A stretch of DNA of 28,767 bases from a virus. Its lineage: Duplodnaviria; Heunggongvirae; Uroviricota; Caudoviricetes. Of the stretch, positions 5,180 through 16,593 are shown one piece after another (position 1 is the first letter of the stretch; every line of letters starts with the position of its first letter). The notes under the pieces are model-generated. The model was not told where the DNA came from. It searched no databases and was given only the letters and a program-made list of their open reading frames with translations. The translations under genes and the position numbers were made by a program. The stretch is taken from the IMG/VR virus record IMGVR_UViG_2778261058_000020, one strand, 5' to 3'.

Positions 5180-5492
5180 TGCTGATTTAATGGCTGCAAC
5201 CTTAATTTCCAGTGGCATGCCAGAACAAAAGGTAAATGATTTCCTGGATAATGTCGTATACCAGCACTATGAGCAGGCCAGAGAAAATTTAATTTCAGAA
5301 AAGCTCACGATGATTGCTGAATCATTAAGTCCTGCATGGATTATCGAAGAGTTGCGGGGAATCATTGCCAGCCAGGATAAAGTGGCGGCAGTTGCCGCCC
5401 TCGATGTGCTACAGCGAATGAGTAAAGAGCTATTCAACACTGAATTAATTTTTAAATCCGGGGGACATAATGAGCCGCACATCCCTAATTAA
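5157..5492 (+). CDS. Hypothetical early protein (111 aa)
   Basis: Track ORF; strong GAGGAGG RBS upstream of ATG 5157; 3' end overlaps the gemA start. Confidence 0.5.
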   Translation: MKIQMITDADLMAATLISSGMPEQKVNDFLDNVVYQHYEQARENLISEKLTMIAESLSPAWIIEELRGIIASQDKVAAVAALDVLQRMSKELFNTELIFKSGGHNEPHIPN

Positions 5493-6021
5493 ATTAATTC
5501 ATGTTGCCCGTCGGGAGTTGCAACTCGACGATGACACTTACCGAGCTTTTCTGGTGCAGTGCACGGGCAAAACCAGTTGCCGCGAGCTGTCTGTTGCACA
5601 ACTGGAACAAGTGCTCGATGCCATGAAAGAGCGCGGTTTTAAAAAGCAGAAAAAACATCCCCGCCGTCGCTTTAAGGGGCATGTCACACCGCGCGAGAAG
5701 ATTTATAAAATCTGGCAGCAGATGTTTCTTGATGGTTTCGTCTCCGATATCAGCGACGCCGCGCTGGACAAATACGTTGAACGTCTGACGGCCAGACGTA
5801 ATGGTGGTCAGGGTGTTTCCACGCTGGCCTGGTGTCATGGGGAATCGTTGCAGGTTGTGCTCGAAACGCTCAAGCAGTGGCATATGCGCTGCATTCGGGA
5901 AGCCTTTGCCCGACATGGCGTGCCTTTACCTGTGAGCGAAACCGGGCGGGAACTGCGCGGATATGATGCACTGACCAGTGCGTATGCCCGCGCCAGAAAC
6001 AGCGGGAGAATAGTTCTATGA
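5470..6021 (+). CDS. gemA: GemA-like protein (Mu gp16 family), 183 aa
   Basis: Track ORF; size and position directly upstream of mor with ATGA start/stop overlap; sequence resembles Mu GemA as recalled. Confidence 0.7.
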   Translation: MSRTSLIKLIHVARRELQLDDDTYRAFLVQCTGKTSCRELSVAQLEQVLDAMKERGFKKQKKHPRRRFKGHVTPREKIYKIWQQMFLDGFVSDISDAALDKYVERLTARRNGGQGVSTLAWCHGESLQVVLETLKQWHMRCIREAFARHGVPLPVSETGRELRGYDALTSAYARARNSGRIVL

Positions 6022-6419
6022 AAGAGCAGGATTTATTTGGTGATTATCAGGACGACAGTATCCTTGAATATTTTGATGATGTTCAGGAAAAATCGGGATT
6101 TCCATCTTTACTGGCTGAGCTGAATGCTCTGTTGCGACAAGAGCTGATAAGGCTTGGAGTTAACCCTGCCCACTCCCTTGAGCTGGTAGTGGCGATTTGC
6201 AATCATATCGGTGGGATTCAGGTATATGTTCCGAAAGGGAAAATACTGGAAAATCTTATCAGAGACATGCGCATCTGGCGTGATTTTGATGGGAAAAACG
6301 TAGCGGAGCTGGTGCAGCGTTACAAAGTGACATACAAAACGGTATATCAGGCCATCAAAAGAATGCGCCGACTGGAGCGTGGAAAGTATCAAATGCAACT
6401 ATTTAAGGACGAACAATGA
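6018..6419 (+). CDS. mor: Mor/C-family transcription activator (middle operon regulator-like), 133 aa
   Basis: Track ORF; C-terminal GGIQVYVPKG linker followed by an HTH (VAELVQRYKVTYKTVYQAIKRMRR) typical of the Mor/C family; follows gemA as in Mu. Confidence 0.8.
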   Translation: MKEQDLFGDYQDDSILEYFDDVQEKSGFPSLLAELNALLRQELIRLGVNPAHSLELVVAICNHIGGIQVYVPKGKILENLIRDMRIWRDFDGKNVAELVQRYKVTYKTVYQAIKRMRRLERGKYQMQLFKDEQ

Positions 6420-6913
6420 AATATCTTCCCCTTATTCTTTTACTAACTGTTACTACTGTACAAGCGGCGGATACATTCCAGCAAAAAGTCAAAGATGTTT
6501 TTCAGAAAAAAACATCCGTTGACTATACCGACTGGTACGGTAAAGGTGACGCTGCCATTGCTGAGTTTAAAGGATTTAACTTAGGTGTATATCAGGATTT
6601 AAAGACGTCTGTGCGAGATAACGAAATCAACATAAAAATGCAGTATGTTACAGGACCGGTTCGCCCCGATAGCGACGAGTTCGCTCAAATGACGTCTGCT
6701 TTATGTGAAACTGTTTTTGAGCCTTTTGTTGTCCCTGATTATGTTCGCCCGACATCATGGGACGATGATACCCCAGCCCCGCTGAATTTCATGCAAGTTA
6801 AAAATTTAAAGCAAGCTGAAGATGATCCTGTCGAAAAAACAGTAAATGGCTGGAAGATAAAAATTGATCGTTCAGTAATGAAGACTACGTGTTCTGCCCG
6901 TAAAGTTAACTGA
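6416..6913 (+). CDS. Secreted (periplasmic) protein of unknown function with cleavable signal peptide, 165 aa
   Basis: Track ORF; N-terminus MKYLPLILLLTVTTVQA followed by ADT (AXA-type cleavage site); ATGA overlap with the mor stop; coding sequence looks AT-richer than its neighbours. Confidence 0.6.
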   Translation: MKYLPLILLLTVTTVQAADTFQQKVKDVFQKKTSVDYTDWYGKGDAAIAEFKGFNLGVYQDLKTSVRDNEINIKMQYVTGPVRPDSDEFAQMTSALCETVFEPFVVPDYVRPTSWDDDTPAPLNFMQVKNLKQAEDDPVEKTVNGWKIKIDRSVMKTTCSARKVN

Positions 6914-6935
6914 ACCAATAACCTTATATTCAATG

Positions 6936-6959
6936 AAGCCGGTAAATCCGGCTTTTTTT
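6936..6959 (+). terminator. Rho-independent terminator-like hairpin (AAGCCGG-TAAAT-CCGGCTT plus T7)
   Basis: Perfect 7-bp stem, 5-nt loop, run of seven T; sits 23 nt after the stop codon of ORF 6416..6913. Confidence 0.7.
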
Positions 6960-7014
6960 ATGCCTCCGGCACCATGAAGCAGACCACGTTTAAATCTGCT
7001 TCACAGGTGCTTTT

Positions 7015-7611
7015 ATGGAAAATCTAAAATTCTCCCCGGCCTTTGAGCATGCGCTGAATTTTATTCTGCGTCCTGATATCGAAGGCGGCTATGTCAATGA
7101 CCCCACTGACAGTGGCGGCGAAACCAAATACGGCATTTCTGACCGCCGCGACGGTGTGATTGACGGCAAAACCGATGTCAACGGCGACGGCAAACCGGAT
7201 ACCCGCATTAAGGATTTAACCCGCGAACAGGTTGCGCAGATTTACTGGCGCGATTACTGGCTACCTGCCGGATGTGACCAGTGGCCTGATGGCGTGGCGA
7301 TGTTTGTGTTCGATGCGGCGGTTCAGCATGGCGTTAAAAAAGCCATCAGGATTTTGCAGGAAGCCGCTGATGTGGATGCTGACGGCATCATCGGCCCACG
7401 TACCCGTAAGGCCGTGAGCCTGTCCACACCGGATTGGTTGCTGGCCCGCTGCATTGTCCGTCGTTCCTGCTTTTATGCCGACATCATCAAGTCAAAACCC
7501 GCCCAGGGCAAATACCTGAACGGCTGGTTTAACCGCATGGAAAAACTGACCGACGCCTGTCTGGAAATCATCGATACCCCTTTGGGCATCATGTCCGCCA
7601 CGCGGGGGTGA
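7015..7611 (+). CDS. lys: Endolysin, GH108-type N-terminal domain plus PG_binding_3-like C-terminal domain (198 aa), no N-terminal TM/SAR segment
   Basis: Track ORF; motifs EGGYVNDPTDSGGETKYGIS and RDYWLPAGCDQWPDGVAMFVFDAAVQHG ... DGIIGPRTRKAV typical of GH108/PG-binding-3 lysins; position equals Mu lys. Confidence 0.75.
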   Translation: MENLKFSPAFEHALNFILRPDIEGGYVNDPTDSGGETKYGISDRRDGVIDGKTDVNGDGKPDTRIKDLTREQVAQIYWRDYWLPAGCDQWPDGVAMFVFDAAVQHGVKKAIRILQEAADVDADGIIGPRTRKAVSLSTPDWLLARCIVRRSCFYADIIKSKPAQGKYLNGWFNRMEKLTDACLEIIDTPLGIMSATRG

Positions 7612-9054: not shown

Positions 9055-9344
9055 TCAGAGCCAACTGGCCCATTCTGTGGGCATTGCTGATGACAGGAAT
9101 AAACCTGCTTCAGTTGATTCTGGCAAAGACCTACGTCAAACGCGAAGAGTTTGATTTGCTGCGTTCCCGCGTGTCGGTGATGGAAAGCCAGGTACATCAG
9201 CTACCTGATCGTGATGAGTTCCACCGCCTGCAACTGGATATCAGCAACCTGCGGGGAGAAATCAAAGAGCTGGGGCCATCCATCCGCCAGGTATCCCGCA
9301 TCAGCGATTTGTTATTAGAGAACGAGTTAAAGGAAAAAAATTAA
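9039..9344 (+). CDS. Small membrane-anchored coiled-coil protein (101 aa, GTG start); possible lysis or morphogenesis accessory
   Basis: Track ORF; AGGAGG RBS upstream; N-terminal hydrophobic helix WPILWALLMTGINLLQLIL then charged helical region. Confidence 0.5.
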   Translation: MSWEMIRANWPILWALLMTGINLLQLILAKTYVKREEFDLLRSRVSVMESQVHQLPDRDEFHRLQLDISNLRGEIKELGPSIRQVSRISDLLLENELKEKN

Positions 9345-10076: not shown

Positions 10077-10658
10077 ATGGAAAATGAACAACGCCCCACC
10101 CGTGGCCGTCTTTCCAAAGTGGATTTACTCCCGGACAGCATCCGGGAGCAGTTGCATCAGATGCTGCGGGAAAAGCGGCACACGCAGGAAGAAATCCGCG
10201 AAGCCATCAATGCCCTGATTGACGAACATAACCTGCCGGAAGAGATGCAGTTAAGCCGGACGGGCTTAAACCGCTACGCCATCCGCATGGAAAAAGTCGG
10301 GGCAAAAATCCGTGCCTCCCGCGAAATGGCCGAAGTCTGGGCGGCAAAGCTGGGTTCCGCGCCAACATCAGACGTCGGCAAGCTGCTGATGGAGTTTGTA
10401 AAAACGCTGGCCTTTGAAACGTCCATGTCGATGGCAGAAGACGACAAACCTGTTGCACCGAAGGCGCTGGGCCAACTGGCGCTGGTTGCCCAGCGTCTGG
10501 AAGTGGCAGCCATGACCAGCCATAAACGCGAGAAAGCGATCCGCGATGCGTTTGCGCAGGAGATGGCAGAGAAAACCGAAGAGCTGGTCAGAACGGGCGG
10601 TCTGTCGGGCGGTGCGGCTGACACCATCAAACGTGAAATTCTGGGGATTAGCGCATGA
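10077..10658 (+). CDS. Mu gp27-like protein (DUF3486 family), putative small terminase / pac-recognition subunit
   Basis: AGGAG RBS 8 nt upstream of ATG 10077 (track ORF starts at GTG 10056); lies immediately upstream of and overlaps the large terminase gene. Confidence 0.6.
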   Translation: MENEQRPTRGRLSKVDLLPDSIREQLHQMLREKRHTQEEIREAINALIDEHNLPEEMQLSRTGLNRYAIRMEKVGAKIRASREMAEVWAAKLGSAPTSDVGKLLMEFVKTLAFETSMSMAEDDKPVAPKALGQLALVAQRLEVAAMTSHKREKAIRDAFAQEMAEKTEELVRTGGLSGGAADTIKREILGISA

Positions 10659-12190
10659 CACAGATGAACACGTTCAGTGAATACGATGTTCTGCTGCCGT
10701 ATCAGAAACGCTGGGTGGCGGATGATGCCGACCTGAAAATCGCCGAGAAATCCCGCCGTACCGGTTTAACCTGGGCGGAAGCTGCGGATGCGGCACTGAC
10801 GGCATCACTGAAGAAGGAAGACGGCGGGCGCGATCACTTTTATATCGGTTCGAATAAGGAGATGGCCCGCGAATTTATCGACGCCGTGGCGATGTGGGCG
10901 AAAGCGTTTAATGCGGCAGCGGAAGAAATCTGCGAGGAAGTGATCACCGACGAAGACAAGGACATTCTGACGTTCGTCGTGTACTTCGCCAGCGGTTTTA
11001 AGGTCAAGGCACTGTCCAGCAACCCGAGCAACATTCGCGGGATGCAGGGGAATGTCACCATCGACGAGGCCGCGTTCCATGAAAAACTGGACGAACTGCT
11101 GAAGGCCGTGCTGCCGCTGAAAACATGGGGCGGCAAAATTCGCCTTATTTCCACCCATGACGGCGTGGACAACCTGTTTAACCAGCTGATTCAGGAAAGC
11201 CGGGCGGGCAAAAAAGATTACAGCATTCACACCATCACGCTGGACGACGCCTGCAATGACGGGCTGTACCGGCGTATCTGTCAGGTGCGCGGCATGGTGT
11301 GGTCACCGGAAGCCGAGGCGGAATGGAAAGAAGGCCTGCTACGAAATACCGCCACCCGCGAAGACGCACTGGAGGAATATTACTGCGTCCCGAAAAACGG
11401 CGGCGGCACGTATATCCCCCGCTCACTGCGTGAACGTGCGGCCCGTGGCACCGGAAAAGTGTTGCGCTTTACCGGCACACCGGAATTTAACGCACTGACG
11501 GAAAGTCAGCGCCGGGCAGATATCCGGGAATGGCTGGAAACAGTGGTGCGCCCCGAGCTGGAAAAACTCCCGAAGAACCTGCGCCACTGTCTGGGGGAAG
11601 ACTTTGCGCGTTCGGGTGACCTGACCGTACTGGCCCCTGTGACGGTGAACGATGACACCACCCGCGAGGTGCCGTTCCTGGTTGAGCTTGGCAATGTGCC
11701 GTTTAAACAGCAGGAGCAGGTGCTGTTCTGGCTTTGCGATCGTCTGCCCCGTCGTGACGGCATCAAAATGGATGCGCGGGGGAATGGTCAGTATCTGGCA
11801 GAACAGGCGGCGGAGCGGTACGGCGATGAAGTGGAACAGGTGATGCTGTCCGTGGCGTTCTACCGCGAAAACATGCCCCGTTTCCGTGCGGCGTTTGAAG
11901 ATGATGAGCTGATCCTTCCGAAGCATGAAGACGTGATCAATGACCTCGGGGCCATTCAGTTACTGCGTGGCATTCCCGGCATTGATGATGCCCGTACTAA
12001 AGGCAGCGATGGCCGCAAGCGTCACGGCGACGCCGCGGTGGCCATTTTCCTGGGCTTCCTTGCCAGCAAGGATGACTGCCACCGTTATGAGCTGCACCGC
12101 CTGAACCGCCCGGCGAAACCGGAAGAACGCAACGCGCGCCGCCAGATGAAGCTGACACGCGGCCTGAAAAATGAGGGAGGTTTACTGTGA
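10655..12190 (+). CDS. Terminase large subunit (Mu gp28-like), 511 aa
   Basis: Track ORF; ATGA overlap with upstream gene; size and position before the portal gene; deviant Walker-A-like KSRRTGLT near N-terminus. Confidence 0.85.
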   Translation: MTQMNTFSEYDVLLPYQKRWVADDADLKIAEKSRRTGLTWAEAADAALTASLKKEDGGRDHFYIGSNKEMAREFIDAVAMWAKAFNAAAEEICEEVITDEDKDILTFVVYFASGFKVKALSSNPSNIRGMQGNVTIDEAAFHEKLDELLKAVLPLKTWGGKIRLISTHDGVDNLFNQLIQESRAGKKDYSIHTITLDDACNDGLYRRICQVRGMVWSPEAEAEWKEGLLRNTATREDALEEYYCVPKNGGGTYIPRSLRERAARGTGKVLRFTGTPEFNALTESQRRADIREWLETVVRPELEKLPKNLRHCLGEDFARSGDLTVLAPVTVNDDTTREVPFLVELGNVPFKQQEQVLFWLCDRLPRRDGIKMDARGNGQYLAEQAAERYGDEVEQVMLSVAFYRENMPRFRAAFEDDELILPKHEDVINDLGAIQLLRGIPGIDDARTKGSDGRKRHGDAAVAIFLGFLASKDDCHRYELHRLNRPAKPEERNARRQMKLTRGLKNEGGLL

Positions 12191-13758
12191 ACCTGAAACA
12201 ACTGGCCGGGGCCGTTCGCCGTCTGCTGAACCCGGCAACCGGTGAGGAAGACACGCTGAAAAAAGAGGCGCTCAACGAAGCACAGGCCCGTCCGCGTCAT
12301 GCCGGTGTGCGTTCGGCCTCGCCGGGTATCAGCGTCGCCTCCGGGCTGAACCCCGGCAGGCTGGCAGGCATTCTGCGCAATGCTACTGACGGCATCACGC
12401 GTGATTTTTTTATCCTTGCTGAAGAGATGGAAGAACGCGATTTGCATTACGCCTCGGTACTGCGCACCCGCAAGCTGACGGTGGCGGGTATCGAACCGGT
12501 GGTGGTGGCCGCCAGTGATGACGATGCTGACGTGCAACTGGCGGACGCCATCCGTGCACTGATGGAGGCACCGCAAATCCCTGAGCTGATGTTTGATCTG
12601 CTCGACGGGCTGGGAAAAGGCGTGGCGGTCTGTGAAATTTTGTGGAACACCCGCAACAACCACTGGGTGCCCCGTGATTATGAGTGGGTTGATCCCCGTT
12701 TTCTGAAAGCCGAAAAGCCCACGCTGCGCCAGTTCCGCCTGCTGACAGACGATGAACCGGTGGATGGTGTACCGCTGACACCTGGAAAATTCATTGTTCA
12801 CCAGCCGCGCCTGAAATCCGGTTTGCCGCTGCGTAACGGTCTGGCCCGTCTGGTGGCGGTGATGTACATGCTGAAATCCTTTACCGTGCGCGACTGGTGG
12901 GCATTTGCGGAAAAATTCGGCATTCCGGTCACGGTGGGGAAATACGGCCCCAACGCCACGGAGGAGCAAATCCGCGTGCTGATTGATGCGATTGCTTCCA
13001 TTGCCTCGGATGCCGGGTGTGCCATTCCGCAGTCCATGCAACTGGAAATGAAGGAAACCGCCAGCCGGAATAACGGCGGCGCACTGTTCCGTGAAATGGC
13101 GGAATGGTGTGATGCGCAAATCAGTAAGGCTGTGCTGGGGCAGACCATGACCACGGATAACGGCAGTTCGCGTTCACAGGCGGACGTGCACAATCAGGTG
13201 CGCATGGACATTGTGCGCTGGGACGCGCGGCAGCTGGCTAACACGCTGAATGAATATCTGGTGCGGCCCTACATCGAGGCCAACTACGGGCCACAGGAAC
13301 ACTACCCCCGTGTTGTTCTGCGTATCAGTGAAGCGGAAGATCTGAAGGCGCTGACAGATGCTCTGGTGCCGCTGATTGACCGGGGGATGCGGGTTCAGGA
13401 ATCGGAGCTGCGGGACCGGTTCGGCCTGGCTGAACCGGACGACGGGGCTGATGTTCTGCATCCGGTGTCTGCCGGAATGTCAGGTGATGTGGCGATGAAC
13501 CGCGAGCGCGTCGCCCTGAACCGGGAACACCCCGATGAACTGGCACAGATGGTGGATGATGCCCTGCGTGACTGGCAGAAAACCGGCGAGGCGTTCACGA
13601 ACCCGGTGCTGACACTGGCGCAGGAATGCGACAGTTTTGATGACTTTCTGAAACGCCTGCCTGAGCTTCAGGAAACGCTGAACGCGGACGACTTTGCCCT
13701 GCAACTGGCGGAGGTGTGCTTTAAGGCGCGTGCGCTGGGGGACACCGGTCATGCGTGA
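12187..13758 (+). CDS. H: Portal protein (Mu gp29 / DUF935 family), 523 aa, GTG start
   Basis: Track ORF; GGAGG RBS; overlaps terminase stop; size and order typical of Mu portal. Confidence 0.85.
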   Translation: MNLKQLAGAVRRLLNPATGEEDTLKKEALNEAQARPRHAGVRSASPGISVASGLNPGRLAGILRNATDGITRDFFILAEEMEERDLHYASVLRTRKLTVAGIEPVVVAASDDDADVQLADAIRALMEAPQIPELMFDLLDGLGKGVAVCEILWNTRNNHWVPRDYEWVDPRFLKAEKPTLRQFRLLTDDEPVDGVPLTPGKFIVHQPRLKSGLPLRNGLARLVAVMYMLKSFTVRDWWAFAEKFGIPVTVGKYGPNATEEQIRVLIDAIASIASDAGCAIPQSMQLEMKETASRNNGGALFREMAEWCDAQISKAVLGQTMTTDNGSSRSQADVHNQVRMDIVRWDARQLANTLNEYLVRPYIEANYGPQEHYPRVVLRISEAEDLKALTDALVPLIDRGMRVQESELRDRFGLAEPDDGADVLHPVSAGMSGDVAMNRERVALNREHPDELAQMVDDALRDWQKTGEAFTNPVLTLAQECDSFDDFLKRLPELQETLNADDFALQLAEVCFKARALGDTGHA

Positions 13759-14515
13759 AACTCTCATCCCGAAAGAGGCGCTGGCGTGGCTGAAGGCGAA
13801 GAAGCTGCGCCCCGGTTTTGATTACCGGGATGTATGGCGGGAAGAACACCGGAACAGCTTCACCGTGGCAAAAATGCTGCAACTGGATTTGTTGTCGGAT
13901 GTGAAAGCCCTTGTGGAAGACGCCCTGCAAAGCGGGCAGACGTTCAGCGAGTTCCGGGAGGCGCTGCAACCGCTGCTGATAAAACACGGATGGTGGGGCG
14001 TACAGGAGATGGATGATCCGCTGACGGGCGAAACCCGAACCGTACAGCTGGGCAGCGACCGCCGCCTCCGCACGATTTACGATACCAACATGCGCACCGC
14101 CCGCGCGGCGGGCCAGTGGGAACGCATTCAACGGACAAAGCGGGCCATGCCGTATCTGATTTACGAGCTGGGGCCATCCCGCGACCACCGGGCGGAGCAT
14201 GTGAAATGGGCGCGTCTGTGTCTGCCTGTAGACCACCCGTTCTGGCAGACGCATTTCGCCCCTAACGGCTGGGGCTGCAAATGCACCATCCGTCAGGTCA
14301 GCCGTGGTGAATATGCGCAACTGGCGGCACAGGGCACCATTCACACCGAAGCGCCGGAAATCAGAACTGTCCGCTGGGTGAACAAACGCACGGGCGAAGA
14401 GGAAGATGTGCCGGAAGGGATTGATCCGGGCTGGAACTACAATCCCGGCATAAACCGTGAGCAGGAGCTGGCGCGCCAGCTGGCGACAAAACAGGCCCGT
14501 TTTGACAGTGAGTAA
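13751..14515 (+). CDS. F: Head morphogenesis protein F (Mu gp30 / SPP1 gp7-like)
   Basis: ATG 13751 overlaps the portal stop by 8 nt (track ORF extends to 13694); position and size match Mu F. Confidence 0.8.
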   Translation: MRETLIPKEALAWLKAKKLRPGFDYRDVWREEHRNSFTVAKMLQLDLLSDVKALVEDALQSGQTFSEFREALQPLLIKHGWWGVQEMDDPLTGETRTVQLGSDRRLRTIYDTNMRTARAAGQWERIQRTKRAMPYLIYELGPSRDHRAEHVKWARLCLPVDHPFWQTHFAPNGWGCKCTIRQVSRGEYAQLAAQGTIHTEAPEIRTVRWVNKRTGEEEDVPEGIDPGWNYNPGINREQELARQLATKQARFDSE

Positions 14516-14728
14516 CCCTCCCGCCGTAAATCCCCCTGAAACGCATCAGAAACGCGTTTTTTATTCTGATGGCGTGAATGTGCATTCTGACGTTTTTGAA
14601 GATGCTGTGGCGTTTTTGAAGGGGTTTTGAAGGGGGTATTTCCCCGTTTTCAGTGAAGCCGGTAAATCCGGCTTTTTTTCTGCCTTCCGCATACTGACCG
14701 TCGGTAACCCCAAACGACGGAGACTGAC
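14516..14728. promoter_or_regulatory. F-I intergenic control region: hairpin, palindrome, three tandem TTTTGAAG repeats, second copy of terminator/dyad cassette; candidate late promoter and/or gyrase site
   Basis: Only sizeable non-coding gap in the late region; hairpin CATCAGAA/TTCTGATG (14544-14571); GAATG-TG-CATTC (14576-14587); CGTTTTTGAAG at 14591-14601 and 14611-14621; GTTTTGAAG at 14624-14632. Confidence 0.5.
14656..14679 (+). terminator. Rho-independent terminator-like hairpin, second copy (AAGCCGG-TAAAT-CCGGCTT plus T7)
   Basis: Identical in sequence to the hairpin at 6936-6959; follows gene F and precedes gene I. Confidence 0.7.
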
Positions 14729-15691
14729 ATGCAACCGGAACTGCTGGCGCTGTGTTTTTCCCTGCCAGAACCCATCCCTGAGCTGACACCCGCTCAACTG
14801 CCTGAATGGCTTGAACTCGTTCCTGCGGGTGAGTTCACCGGGCGCGATGGCCGGACGTGGATTAACCGCAATCCGCATGAGGTGGTCACCCGTTCGTCCG
14901 ACATCAAAATTCCGGTGGACATTGAACACGCCACCGAAATTAAAGGGCAACGCGGTGATGAAGCCCCGGCGTATGGCTGGGTGGAAGAACTGCGCGTGAC
15001 GGACAGCGGCACCATTGAAGGCCGTGTTGTCTGGAGCGAGTACGCCCGGTGGATGCTGAGCGAACGCCGTTACCGCTATTACAGCCCGGCGTTTTTCTTT
15101 GACGCAGACGGTGTGGTGACGCGCCTGTCCAGCGTCGGGCTGACCAACAAACCTAACCTGGATTTTCCTGCACTGAATACGGAGAAAAACCCGATGACAG
15201 TACCTGTGCAAATCACCGGCCTGCTTGGGCTGGCTGAATCTGCCACGGTGGACGATACCGTGGCCGCCATTAAACAACTTCAGGAGAACGAACAGGTGGC
15301 GCTGAACCGCGCACAGACACCTGACCTGACGAAGTTTGTACCGGTGGAAACCCACAATCTGGCACTGAACCGTGCCGAAACCGCAGAACAACGCCTTCAG
15401 CAACTGGAAGAGAAGGAAGCAGAAGCGCTTGTGGATGCGGCCATCGAAGCCGGAAAAGTGGCCCCGGCAAACCGTGACATGTTCCTTGCCACCTGCCGCA
15501 CGGAAGAAGGCCGCAAACAGTTTGCGGAATACACCAAAGGTGCACAGCCGCTGGTGAACAACGACAAGCCCAGCCAGGGCAAGGATAAACCCGCGCAGAC
15601 ACTGACCGACGCCGAACTGGCGATGTGTCGCAGCATGGGTATTACCGGGGAAGAGTTCCTCACCGCTAAACCGAAACAGGAGAATAACTGA
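14729..15691 (+). CDS. I: Head maturation protease / scaffold protein I (Mu gp32-like), 320 aa
   Basis: Track ORF; GGAG RBS; N-terminal protease-like region and Ala/Glu-rich helical C-terminus; immediately upstream of major head gene. Confidence 0.75.
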   Translation: MQPELLALCFSLPEPIPELTPAQLPEWLELVPAGEFTGRDGRTWINRNPHEVVTRSSDIKIPVDIEHATEIKGQRGDEAPAYGWVEELRVTDSGTIEGRVVWSEYARWMLSERRYRYYSPAFFFDADGVVTRLSSVGLTNKPNLDFPALNTEKNPMTVPVQITGLLGLAESATVDDTVAAIKQLQENEQVALNRAQTPDLTKFVPVETHNLALNRAETAEQRLQQLEEKEAEALVDAAIEAGKVAPANRDMFLATCRTEEGRKQFAEYTKGAQPLVNNDKPSQGKDKPAQTLTDAELAMCRSMGITGEEFLTAKPKQENN

Positions 15692-16593
15692 TGGGAGCAG
15701 TCACTTCCGAAGTCCTTCACGCGCTGACCACCTGCCTGAGCGCCGCTTATACCCGTGGTCTGAGTGGTGTCACCCCACAGTGGCAGCGCATCGCCTCTGA
15801 AATCCCAAGTTCGTCCGCCTCCAATACCTACGGCTGGATGAAAGATTTACCGGAGATTAAGGAATGGGTCAGCGCCCGTCAGATGGCAACGCTGGACGGT
15901 TATGGTTACACCCTGGCGAACAAAACCTGGGAAAGTTCGATCCGCGTTAAACGCGAACACATTGAAGACGATCAGATTGGTCAGTACAGCATTATCGCTG
16001 AACGCTATGGCCGCCAGACATCGGAGTTCCCGGACAAGCTGTGTTACCCCCTGCTGTGTGCCGGGTTTAACACCCTGTGTTTTGACGGTCAGAACTTCTT
16101 TGATGAAGACCACCCGCTGGGCGACGGCACCTGCAGCAATGTTGTCGGCACCCCGGCATCAGACCAGGGAGAGCCGTGGTTCCTGATTGATGATTCTCAG
16201 GTACTGAAACCCATCATCTGGCAGACGCGACGCGCCTTTAAGTTTGAAGCCCTGGATGATCTGAACAGCGAGCACACCTTCAAGAATAACGAGTTCCTTT
16301 ACGGGGTGGACGGTCGCTGCAATGCGGGCTTCGGCTTCTGGCAGACCGCCGTCGGTTCCCGTGCGGCACTGACAGCGGAGAACTACGAGAAGGCCAGCAA
16401 TCTGCTGCTGGGTATGAAGACCACCAACGGTGAACCGCTGGGCATCCGCCCGACCACCCTTGTGGTGGGACCGAAAAACCGCGCGGCGGCGAAGCGCATC
16501 ATTGACGCCATGCTGGTTAACGGCGGCGATTCCAACATCTGGTACAAGGATGTGGACATCGTGGTCAGCCCGTTCATCACCACGCCGGCATAA
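15691..16593 (+). CDS. T: Major head (capsid) subunit T (Mu gp34-like), 300 aa
   Basis: Track ORF; start overlaps the I stop; size and position typical of Mu T. Confidence 0.8.
   Translation: MGAVTSEVLHALTTCLSAAYTRGLSGVTPQWQRIASEIPSSSASNTYGWMKDLPEIKEWVSARQMATLDGYGYTLANKTWESSIRVKREHIEDDQIGQYSIIAERYGRQTSEFPDKLCYPLLCAGFNTLCFDGQNFFDEDHPLGDGTCSNVVGTPASDQGEPWFLIDDSQVLKPIIWQTRRAFKFEALDDLNSEHTFKNNEFLYGVDGRCNAGFGFWQTAVGSRAALTAENYEKASNLLLGMKTTNGEPLGIRPTTLVVGPKNRAAAKRIIDAMLVNGGDSNIWYKDVDIVVSPFITTPA

Follow-up and report, generated by a model that had tools for sequence, protein, structure and literature searches.

A predicted Mor-dependent promoter with an embedded terminator-like hairpin at two late-operon junctions of a Mu-like Escherichia coli prophage

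The Mor-dependent middle promoter of Mu, and the prophage under study

The middle promoter Pm of phage Mu is described as a Mor-dependent, sigma70 promoter (Artsimovitch & Howe 1996, as cited in PMC4287176 and PMC4390567). It has a -10 hexamer but no -35 element; the Mor dimer binds a dyad element at -51 to -36, centred at -43.5, and the Mor footprint covers -56 to -36 (PMC4287176, PMC4390567). Published base positions assign CCCTCAC to -68 to -62 and GTAAAC to -57 to -52 (PMC4390567, Tables 3 and 4), and bases just 3' of the activator dyad are critical for promoter activity in both Pm and Plys (PMC2582627). According to a 2025 preprint, Mor and the related activator C bind in tetrameric form and touch two adjacent major grooves as well as the alpha-CTD, sigma region 4 and the beta flap. 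The consensus of Mu C sites is quoted as TTAT-N5-6-ATAA in PMC12867686, where beta-clamp-binding motifs of the Mor/C family (Qx[D/E][L/M]F and QPDLF) were recently reported as well. No paper describing Mor-box late promoters in Mu-like prophages was found in the literature searched.

The DNA analysed here (the window, 28,767 nucleotides) is a Mu-like transposable prophage of E. coli, of which a 99.5%-identical copy is found in E. coli NZ_LR882057 as a prophage of roughly 35 kb in the fic gene, with com/mom at its end. The genes of the window include, in order, transposase A (1-1998), B (2037-2975), GemA (5470-6021) and the Mor-family activator gene mor (6018-6419, plus strand; Pfam PF08765, E = 6.6e-30), followed by the unclassified orf165 (6416-6913). 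Downstream lie a GH108-type endolysin gene (7015-7611, ATG at 7015) and the genes for the large terminase (10655-12190), the portal (12187-13758), an F-like minor head protein (13694-14515), the head maturation protease/scaffold I (14729-15691, plus strand; PHROG 328, E = 1e-89; a phage protease in RefSeq) and the major head protein T (15691-16593). About 1% of complete E. coli genomes carry a member of this prophage family, STEC and ETEC isolates among them. With 13500-16000 as query, megablast found no match among phage genomes, and a distant-mode search with the same segment matched only Klebsiella phage Kp4866-3 (68%). One scan of genome contigs with the I protein returned a single locus, in Brenneria.

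The activator encoded by the window is 63% identical to Mu Mor and 32% identical to Mu C. It is the only Mor/C-family protein of the complete prophage in NZ_LR882057, the RefSeq annotation of which contains a single Mor-family gene and no C orthologue. Two motifs in this protein, QDLF near the N terminus (residues 4-7) and QMQLF near the C terminus (residues 125-129), resemble the beta-clamp-binding motifs of the Mor/C family (PMC12867686). The neighbouring orf165 has no PHROG or Pfam match; its start overlaps the mor stop codon (ATGA), and it is the last gene ahead of the first cassette discussed below. Homologues of orf165 hold the same position in at least 14 viral contigs, and in at least 32 others mor directly abuts the box.

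Anatomy and conservation of the repeated block

The original prediction had singled out a 44-nt terminator/dyad cassette as being repeated at two late-operon junctions, and a reading of the sequence together with a script comparison confirmed both the repeat and its positions. Copy 1 (6934-6977, TGAAGCCGGTAAATCCGGCTTTTTTTATGCCTCCGGCACCATGA) lies between orf165 and the endolysin gene (lys), and copy 2 (14654-14697, plus strand, TGAAGCCGGTAAATCCGGCTTTTTTTCTGCCTTCCGCATACTGA) in the 213-bp gap between the stop of the F-like head gene at 14515 and the ATG of gene I at 14729. The copies are identical at 38 of 44 nt and throughout the first 26. This 26-mer occurs at exactly two places in the window, even with three mismatches allowed, and in none of 100 dinucleotide shuffles. 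An independent repeat search recovered the pair 6929-6971 / 14649-14691 (91% over 43 nt, family D6). As the identity between the copies continues for another 4-5 bases upstream (TTCA), the shared block spans about -53 to -6 in the promoter numbering used below.

This numbering was anchored on the base positions in Tables 3 and 4 of PMC4390567, laid on the Mu sequence immediately 3' of mor (cAGTAAAGCCGGTTAATCCGGCTTTTTTTACGTCCTCAATATCCTGtgatga). It places AGTAAAGCCGGTTAAT, the Mu Mor element, at -51 to -36, followed by CCGGCTTTTTTT, while TATCCT takes up -13 to -8 and +1 falls eight bases past the hexamer. Over -52 to -7 both cassettes align to Pm without gaps, copy 2 at 36 and copy 1 at 34 of 46 positions. 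The predicted Mor box of copy 2 (AGTGAAGCCGGTAAAT, 14652-14667, plus strand) matches the Pm element at 14 of 16 positions and that of copy 1 (AATGAAGCCGGTAAAT, 6932-6947, plus strand) at 13 of 16, the differences in each including one base per half-site. At -51 to -36 both copies have a 16-bp imperfect dyad with two 5-bp arms and a G/C-rich 6-bp spacer, and the cognate Mor-family activator is encoded by the same element. The CCGGCTTTTTTT segment (CCGGC plus T7) is identical in the two copies and in Mu Pm; its T7 run (14673-14679 in copy 2, plus strand) occupies -30 to -24 of the promoter and is at the same time the U tract of the terminator-like hairpin. It is followed by a conserved TGCC block in the spacer (14681-14684, plus strand; -22 to -19). 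With the spacing of TATCCT in Pm, the predicted -10 hexamers are CATACT in copy 2 (14690-14695, plus strand; next to a conserved G at 14696) and CACCAT in copy 1 (6970-6975, plus strand), both at -13 to -8 and both weak against the consensus (4/6 and 3/6, respectively). The -35 region reads CCGGCT, and the bases before the -10 are CG or GG rather than TG, so that in both copies a -10 hexamer stands at a fixed distance from the box with neither a -35 hexamer nor an extended -10. Transferred from Pm, the predicted transcription starts fall at about 14703 for copy 2 and about 6983 for copy 1 (both plus strand).

Upstream of the box the correspondence is looser. At the Pm position -57 to -52, where Mu has GTAAAC, the proximal UP subsite for the alpha-CTD, copy 2 carries the UP-like segment GTTTTC (14646-14651, plus strand). 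Its C at -52 is present in both copies and in 27 of the 31 family members described below. The tract from -57 to -53 reads GTTTT in copy 2, ATATT in copy 1 and GTAAA in Mu, and the family shows a weak A/T preference at -55 and -54.

Judged by its sequence, the 44-nt block is thus the -49 to -6 part of a Pm-type promoter, and the similarity between the copies ends at 14697 because the cassette is a complete promoter, from Mor box to -10 hexamer. It is a new instance of a well-characterised promoter class and largely an ordinary regulatory element, of which the mor product is the presumed activator in both copies. The activator dependence proposed in the original prediction fits this correspondence to Mor-dependent Pm. 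The original prediction is thus supported in its terminator anatomy, its junctions and its activator dependence, with two refinements: the cassette is more than a dyad ahead of a promoter, being the whole promoter, and the symmetry of the hairpin is not that of the activator site, although its left arm and loop do lie within the 16-bp Mor element. The hairpin is centred at about -38 and the Mor dyad of Pm 5-6 bp further upstream; since the Mor element at -51 to -36 covers only the left arm and loop, the two symmetries are distinct, and the hairpin's own symmetry was rejected as the activator dyad.

In order to see which parts of the cassette are maintained in relatives, viral contigs were scanned for exact matches to AAGCCGGTWAATCCGGCTTTT, which gave at least 128 occurrences in at least 120 stretches. 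At least 84 of these precede endolysin homologues, and among those listed, at least 32 stand directly after mor and at least 14 after an orf165 homologue. Among the matches listed, the box also lies between F and I in at least 27 occurrences, and at least 13 are Mu-type sites between mor and gp18, that is, Pm itself. A conservation profile was derived from 31 dereplicated promoters, in which the 21-mer searched for is conserved by construction. Only between -52 and -7 is the information content high; it drops to background 5' of -55 and 3' of -7. Outside the 21-mer, C-52, A-51, T-49, G-48, the T run to -24, TGCC at -22 to -19 and C-13 are conserved, and the C at -19 is found in all 31 members, at a position that the search pattern did not include. 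In the -10 region A-12 (30/31), T-8 (29/31) and G-7 (28/31) are kept, A-12 and T-8 being the two most critical positions of the hexamer. An activator box plus a -10 hexamer would be expected to leave such a profile; a terminator alone would not.

Two further samples were retrieved by protein and not by the box pattern. In 17 of 17 contigs collected via Mor (68-100% identity) the junction downstream of mor has a complete box, hairpin and T run, and in all 29 contigs collected via I a Mor box and a CAyACTG hexamer stand upstream of this gene. A profile hidden Markov model of the box found both junctions in the Brenneria prophage and the lys junction in Kp4866-3; the I junction of the latter scored non-significantly (E = 0.64), its box being recognised by eye. 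In the Mu segment from 7.5 to 19.5 kb, which includes Plys and PI, the model found only Pm. In the window and in the whole prophage it found only the two sites, and no third one, for instance ahead of the tail genes or com/mom.

The hairpin and the alternative readings

Both cassettes also contain a hairpin with the anatomy of an intrinsic terminator, in line with the terminator half of the original prediction. In copy 2 it extends from 14655 to 14675 (plus strand; stem 14655-14662 / 14668-14675, loop TAAAT) and in copy 1 from 6935 to 6955 (plus strand), with a T run to 6959, 22 nt past the orf165 stop at 6913. By terminator scan each has an 8-pair stem with five G-C pairs, a 5-nt loop and seven T, and by RNA folding each reaches -12.6 kcal/mol (z about -3.3). 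They are the strongest terminator-like hairpins within the 5-17 kb region and the first strong co-oriented ones past the orf165 and F stop codons. Each junction thus has a stable G+C-rich stem-loop with a U tract directly behind it, in the orientation of the operon that it follows, and the copy 1 hairpin is a candidate terminator of the early operon. In the curated GenBank record AF083977 of Mu a TransTermHP terminator is likewise annotated at 9179-9200, inside the Pm feature (9163-9233). A second, weaker hairpin (GAAACGC...GCGUUUU, then UU) lies at 14538-14560, 23 nt past the F stop, nested in an inverted repeat (CATCAGAA/TTCTGATG) upstream of a region that resembles a gyrase site.

The reading preferred here, and a highly probable one, is that of a Pm-type promoter dependent on Mor, the upstream half of which also contains an intrinsic terminator. 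The analysis shows in support of it the correspondence to Pm, the confinement of conservation to -52 to -7, the genomic contexts and the energy of the hairpin; that Mor binds, where transcription starts and how efficiently it terminates are the parts that we infer. Termination at the cassette hairpin, taken by itself, is likely, if less so than the reading as a whole.

The alternative that survives best, although it is unlikely, is that the cassette is a promoter only, in which the right arm and T run are kept as -35-region and spacer DNA and termination is negligible or incidental. As bases 3' of the activator dyad matter for the activity of Pm and Plys (PMC2582627), part of the hairpin conservation could be promoter-related, and the terminator in Mu is itself a TransTermHP prediction. 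Moreover, the PI of three related lineages has a degraded T run or stem, which implies that PI works without a terminator. In Kp4866-3 and Brenneria the T7 of PI is replaced by TTTCTTC, and Kp4866-3 has a stem mismatch in addition. In the L315-L323 clade (I protein about 60% identical) the sequence upstream of I is CAGTGAAGCCGGTTAAT-CCACCTGAGTCCCCGTTTCCCCC-CACACTG, where box and -10 are intact but CCACCTGAGTCC replaces CCGGCTTTTTTT, and the right arm and T run are gone. The same clade, however, speaks against this alternative, as it indicates that neither is required in this promoter family, and their strict retention elsewhere, including the hairpin and T run of all 17 junctions sampled without bias downstream of mor, is then left to explain. 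The canonical terminator features of the hairpin and one compensatory stem change also argue against a promoter only. In the Brenneria-type PI the stem GCCGG/CCGGC has become GGCGG/CCGCC, a C-G to G-C exchange, while the lys junction of the same phage keeps the canonical stem; this covariation is a single event and coincides with the weakened T run (TTTCTTC). Three degenerate pattern scans for further stem variants left, after filtering, the Brenneria type as the sole true variant; they returned almost only chance matches and unrelated terminators and do not amount to a proper covariation test. Since relatives lose the terminator features but keep box and -10, the promoter is the conserved core and the terminator a separable overlay, and these natural variants are ready-made mutants for experiments. 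In Kp4866-3 a cassette-like hairpin (GAGGCGGTAATCCGCCTC, 11026-11045) without T run or -10 directly follows the F stop, and may represent a box that has decayed, or a second one.

That the cassettes are instead just two related intrinsic terminators, the downstream similarity being a leftover of duplication and the late promoters lying elsewhere, is quite improbable. Their standing as the strongest terminator-like hairpins of the region would fit, but conservation extends beyond hairpin and U tract (-52 to -48 and -22 to -7, with A-12 and T-8), the Mu counterpart is an experimentally mapped promoter, and it is the terminator features that relatives drop and the flanks that they keep. Nor did the terminator/promoter scan find a sigma70-type promoter in either junction gap.

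Still less credible is a late promoter of the C type, or one served by another activator such as the unannotated orf165 (6416-6913). The positions are syntenic with the C-dependent Plys and PI of Mu and orf165 belongs to no recognised family, but the prophage has no C orthologue, the cassette contains no TTAT-N5-6-ATAA and matches Pm instead, and at least 32 contigs have the box immediately after mor, with no orf165 homologue in between.

A recent duplication, gene conversion or small mobile or host repeat without function of its own, which the 26 perfectly identical nucleotides within one genome might suggest, can practically be set aside, given that the lys-type and I-type cassettes are each maintained on their own in phages with flanking proteins of only 60-70% identity, that an Rfam search of the window gave no match, and that the E. 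coli block is confined to these prophage junctions. Of 5426 complete E. coli genomes, 46 carry the block, at a minimum of two, a median of two and a maximum of six places per genome, and exactly twice in the prophage of NZ_LR882057. Its occurrence at two or more places per carrier ties it to the prophage rather than to a host-wide repeat, and the many dispersed copies in varied chromosomal contexts that mark a host repeat or miniature mobile element were not seen among the 5426 genomes.

Late transcription and comparison with known systems

If the cassette acts as a promoter with an embedded terminator, the early operon, which ends with mor and orf165, would stop at the copy 1 hairpin. Mor made from it would bind both boxes (14652-14667 in copy 2), replacing the missing -35 element, and recruit sigma70 RNA polymerase to the weak -10 hexamers (CATACT at 14690-14695 in copy 2). 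Transcription starting near 6983 would then run from the endolysin gene through F, and that starting near 14703 from I onwards into the head and tail genes. Gene I, the predicted first gene of the unit driven by copy 2, would be translated from a transcript with a 26-nt leader, the SD sequence GGAG and the ATG at 14729. The lys-to-F transcript would fold the copy 2 hairpin with its seven U and stop there, while transcripts from each cassette would begin 3' of its hairpin and so escape termination by it. As the prophage has no C gene, the cascade would have two steps (early, Mor, late) as against three in Mu. With no third box in the prophage, the unit driven by PI may be very long, or the tail and com/mom genes may have further promoters that escaped recognition. 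In the full prophage, the region upstream of com/mom (L002 36945-37070, outside the window) shares only a GATC-rich segment with Mu Pmom, and it contains neither a Mor box nor the Mu C box TTATGCCCCAATAA.

The F-I gap of the window aligns with the G-I gap of Mu, including the region around the annotated gyrase cut site of Mu. The -10-proximal segment CGCATACTGAC of the window aligns with CGCAAACTGAC, and CATACT of copy 2 with CAAACT, inside the annotated PI; as Plys and PI are known here as 67-bp GenBank promoter features, the correspondence claimed is that CGCATACTGAC aligns inside the annotated PI. The junction is thus homologous, with a Mor-type activator box in the window and a C-type one in Mu. 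Together with the distribution of the box, this homology points to the two-tier Mor cascade as the usual arrangement and to the C tier of Mu as derived. The middle-promoter design of Mu appears to be the widespread form, which in relatives without C serves as a late promoter. The F-I gap lies at about 46% of the prophage length. Repeated TTTTTGAAG-type motifs occupy about 14577-14639 of it, aligning next to the annotated gyrase cut site of Mu, and are kept in the Brenneria, Klebsiella and L315 relatives; this region may be the counterpart of the central strong gyrase site of Mu.

Downstream of the -10 of copy 2 lies an inverted repeat, CCGTCG / CGACGG (14698-14703 / 14715-14720, plus strand); the left arm precedes the predicted +1, and the right arm overlaps the SD sequence GGAG (14719-14722). 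Counterparts are seen at 6975-7003 in copy 1 and at 1719-1724 / about 1751-1756 of the Mu segment L004. Perfect inverted repeats of at least 6 bp downstream of the -10 occur in 25 of 36 dereplicated Mor-box promoters (shuffles: mean 1.7, maximum 6); their left arms fall between the -10 and the predicted +1, and their right arms overlap the ribosome-binding site or immediately precede it. As the arm sequences differ between promoter types, the conserved thing is the structure. Only read-through RNA could form such a hairpin, and this suggests that read-through transcripts are silenced by folding back. A wider view, offered tentatively and rather doubtful, is that a compact stop-and-restart insulator is ancestral to Mu-like phages, that Pm was the original lys promoter, and that the late promoters of Mu were rewired. 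If so, one palindrome would be the RNA terminator of the preceding operon and the DNA Mor box of the next, and the inverted repeat would silence translation of read-through RNA and leave promoter-initiated mRNA open. An inserted middle operon carrying C would have displaced the Pm of Mu from lys, and the late promoters of Mu would have switched from Mor boxes to C boxes.

Work from the Kleckner laboratory reportedly established fold-back inhibition of read-through transcripts in IS10. The likeness would be in the placement of the arms, the left one upstream of the element's own start site and the right one at the ribosome-binding region, and in a hairpin formable only in externally initiated RNA; as a comparison between IS10 and Mu-like phages this is a purely structural analogy. 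The cassette hairpin resembles intrinsic terminators in its 8-bp G+C-rich stem, 5-nt loop, 7-U tract and location just past the last gene of an operon, but differs in that its left arm and loop also serve as the predicted activator site and its U tract is promoter spacer as well.

Both late-operon junctions of an unstudied E. coli Mu-like prophage family can now be assigned a defined and testable mechanism, and the current understanding of activation by Mor and C is left unchanged. The cassettes hold the same positions as the C-dependent Plys and PI of Mu, before the endolysin gene and before I, in the latter case past a gyrase-site-like region within the gap; unlike these promoters, they have a Mor-type rather than a C-type box, in a prophage without a C gene. 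With Pm they share the box, the CCGGC plus T7 segment, the -10 spacing, C-52, the lack of a -35, a mor gene encoded just upstream and a predicted terminator that overlaps the promoter. They differ from it in the -57 to -53 tract, which is T-rich or mixed and not AAA, and in the -10 hexamers CATACT and CACCAT in place of TATCCT. Moreover, the prophage has the promoter twice, and whereas Pm drives the C-encoding middle operon of Mu, its counterparts here are predicted to drive late genes directly, the endolysin gene in one case and the head gene I in the other.
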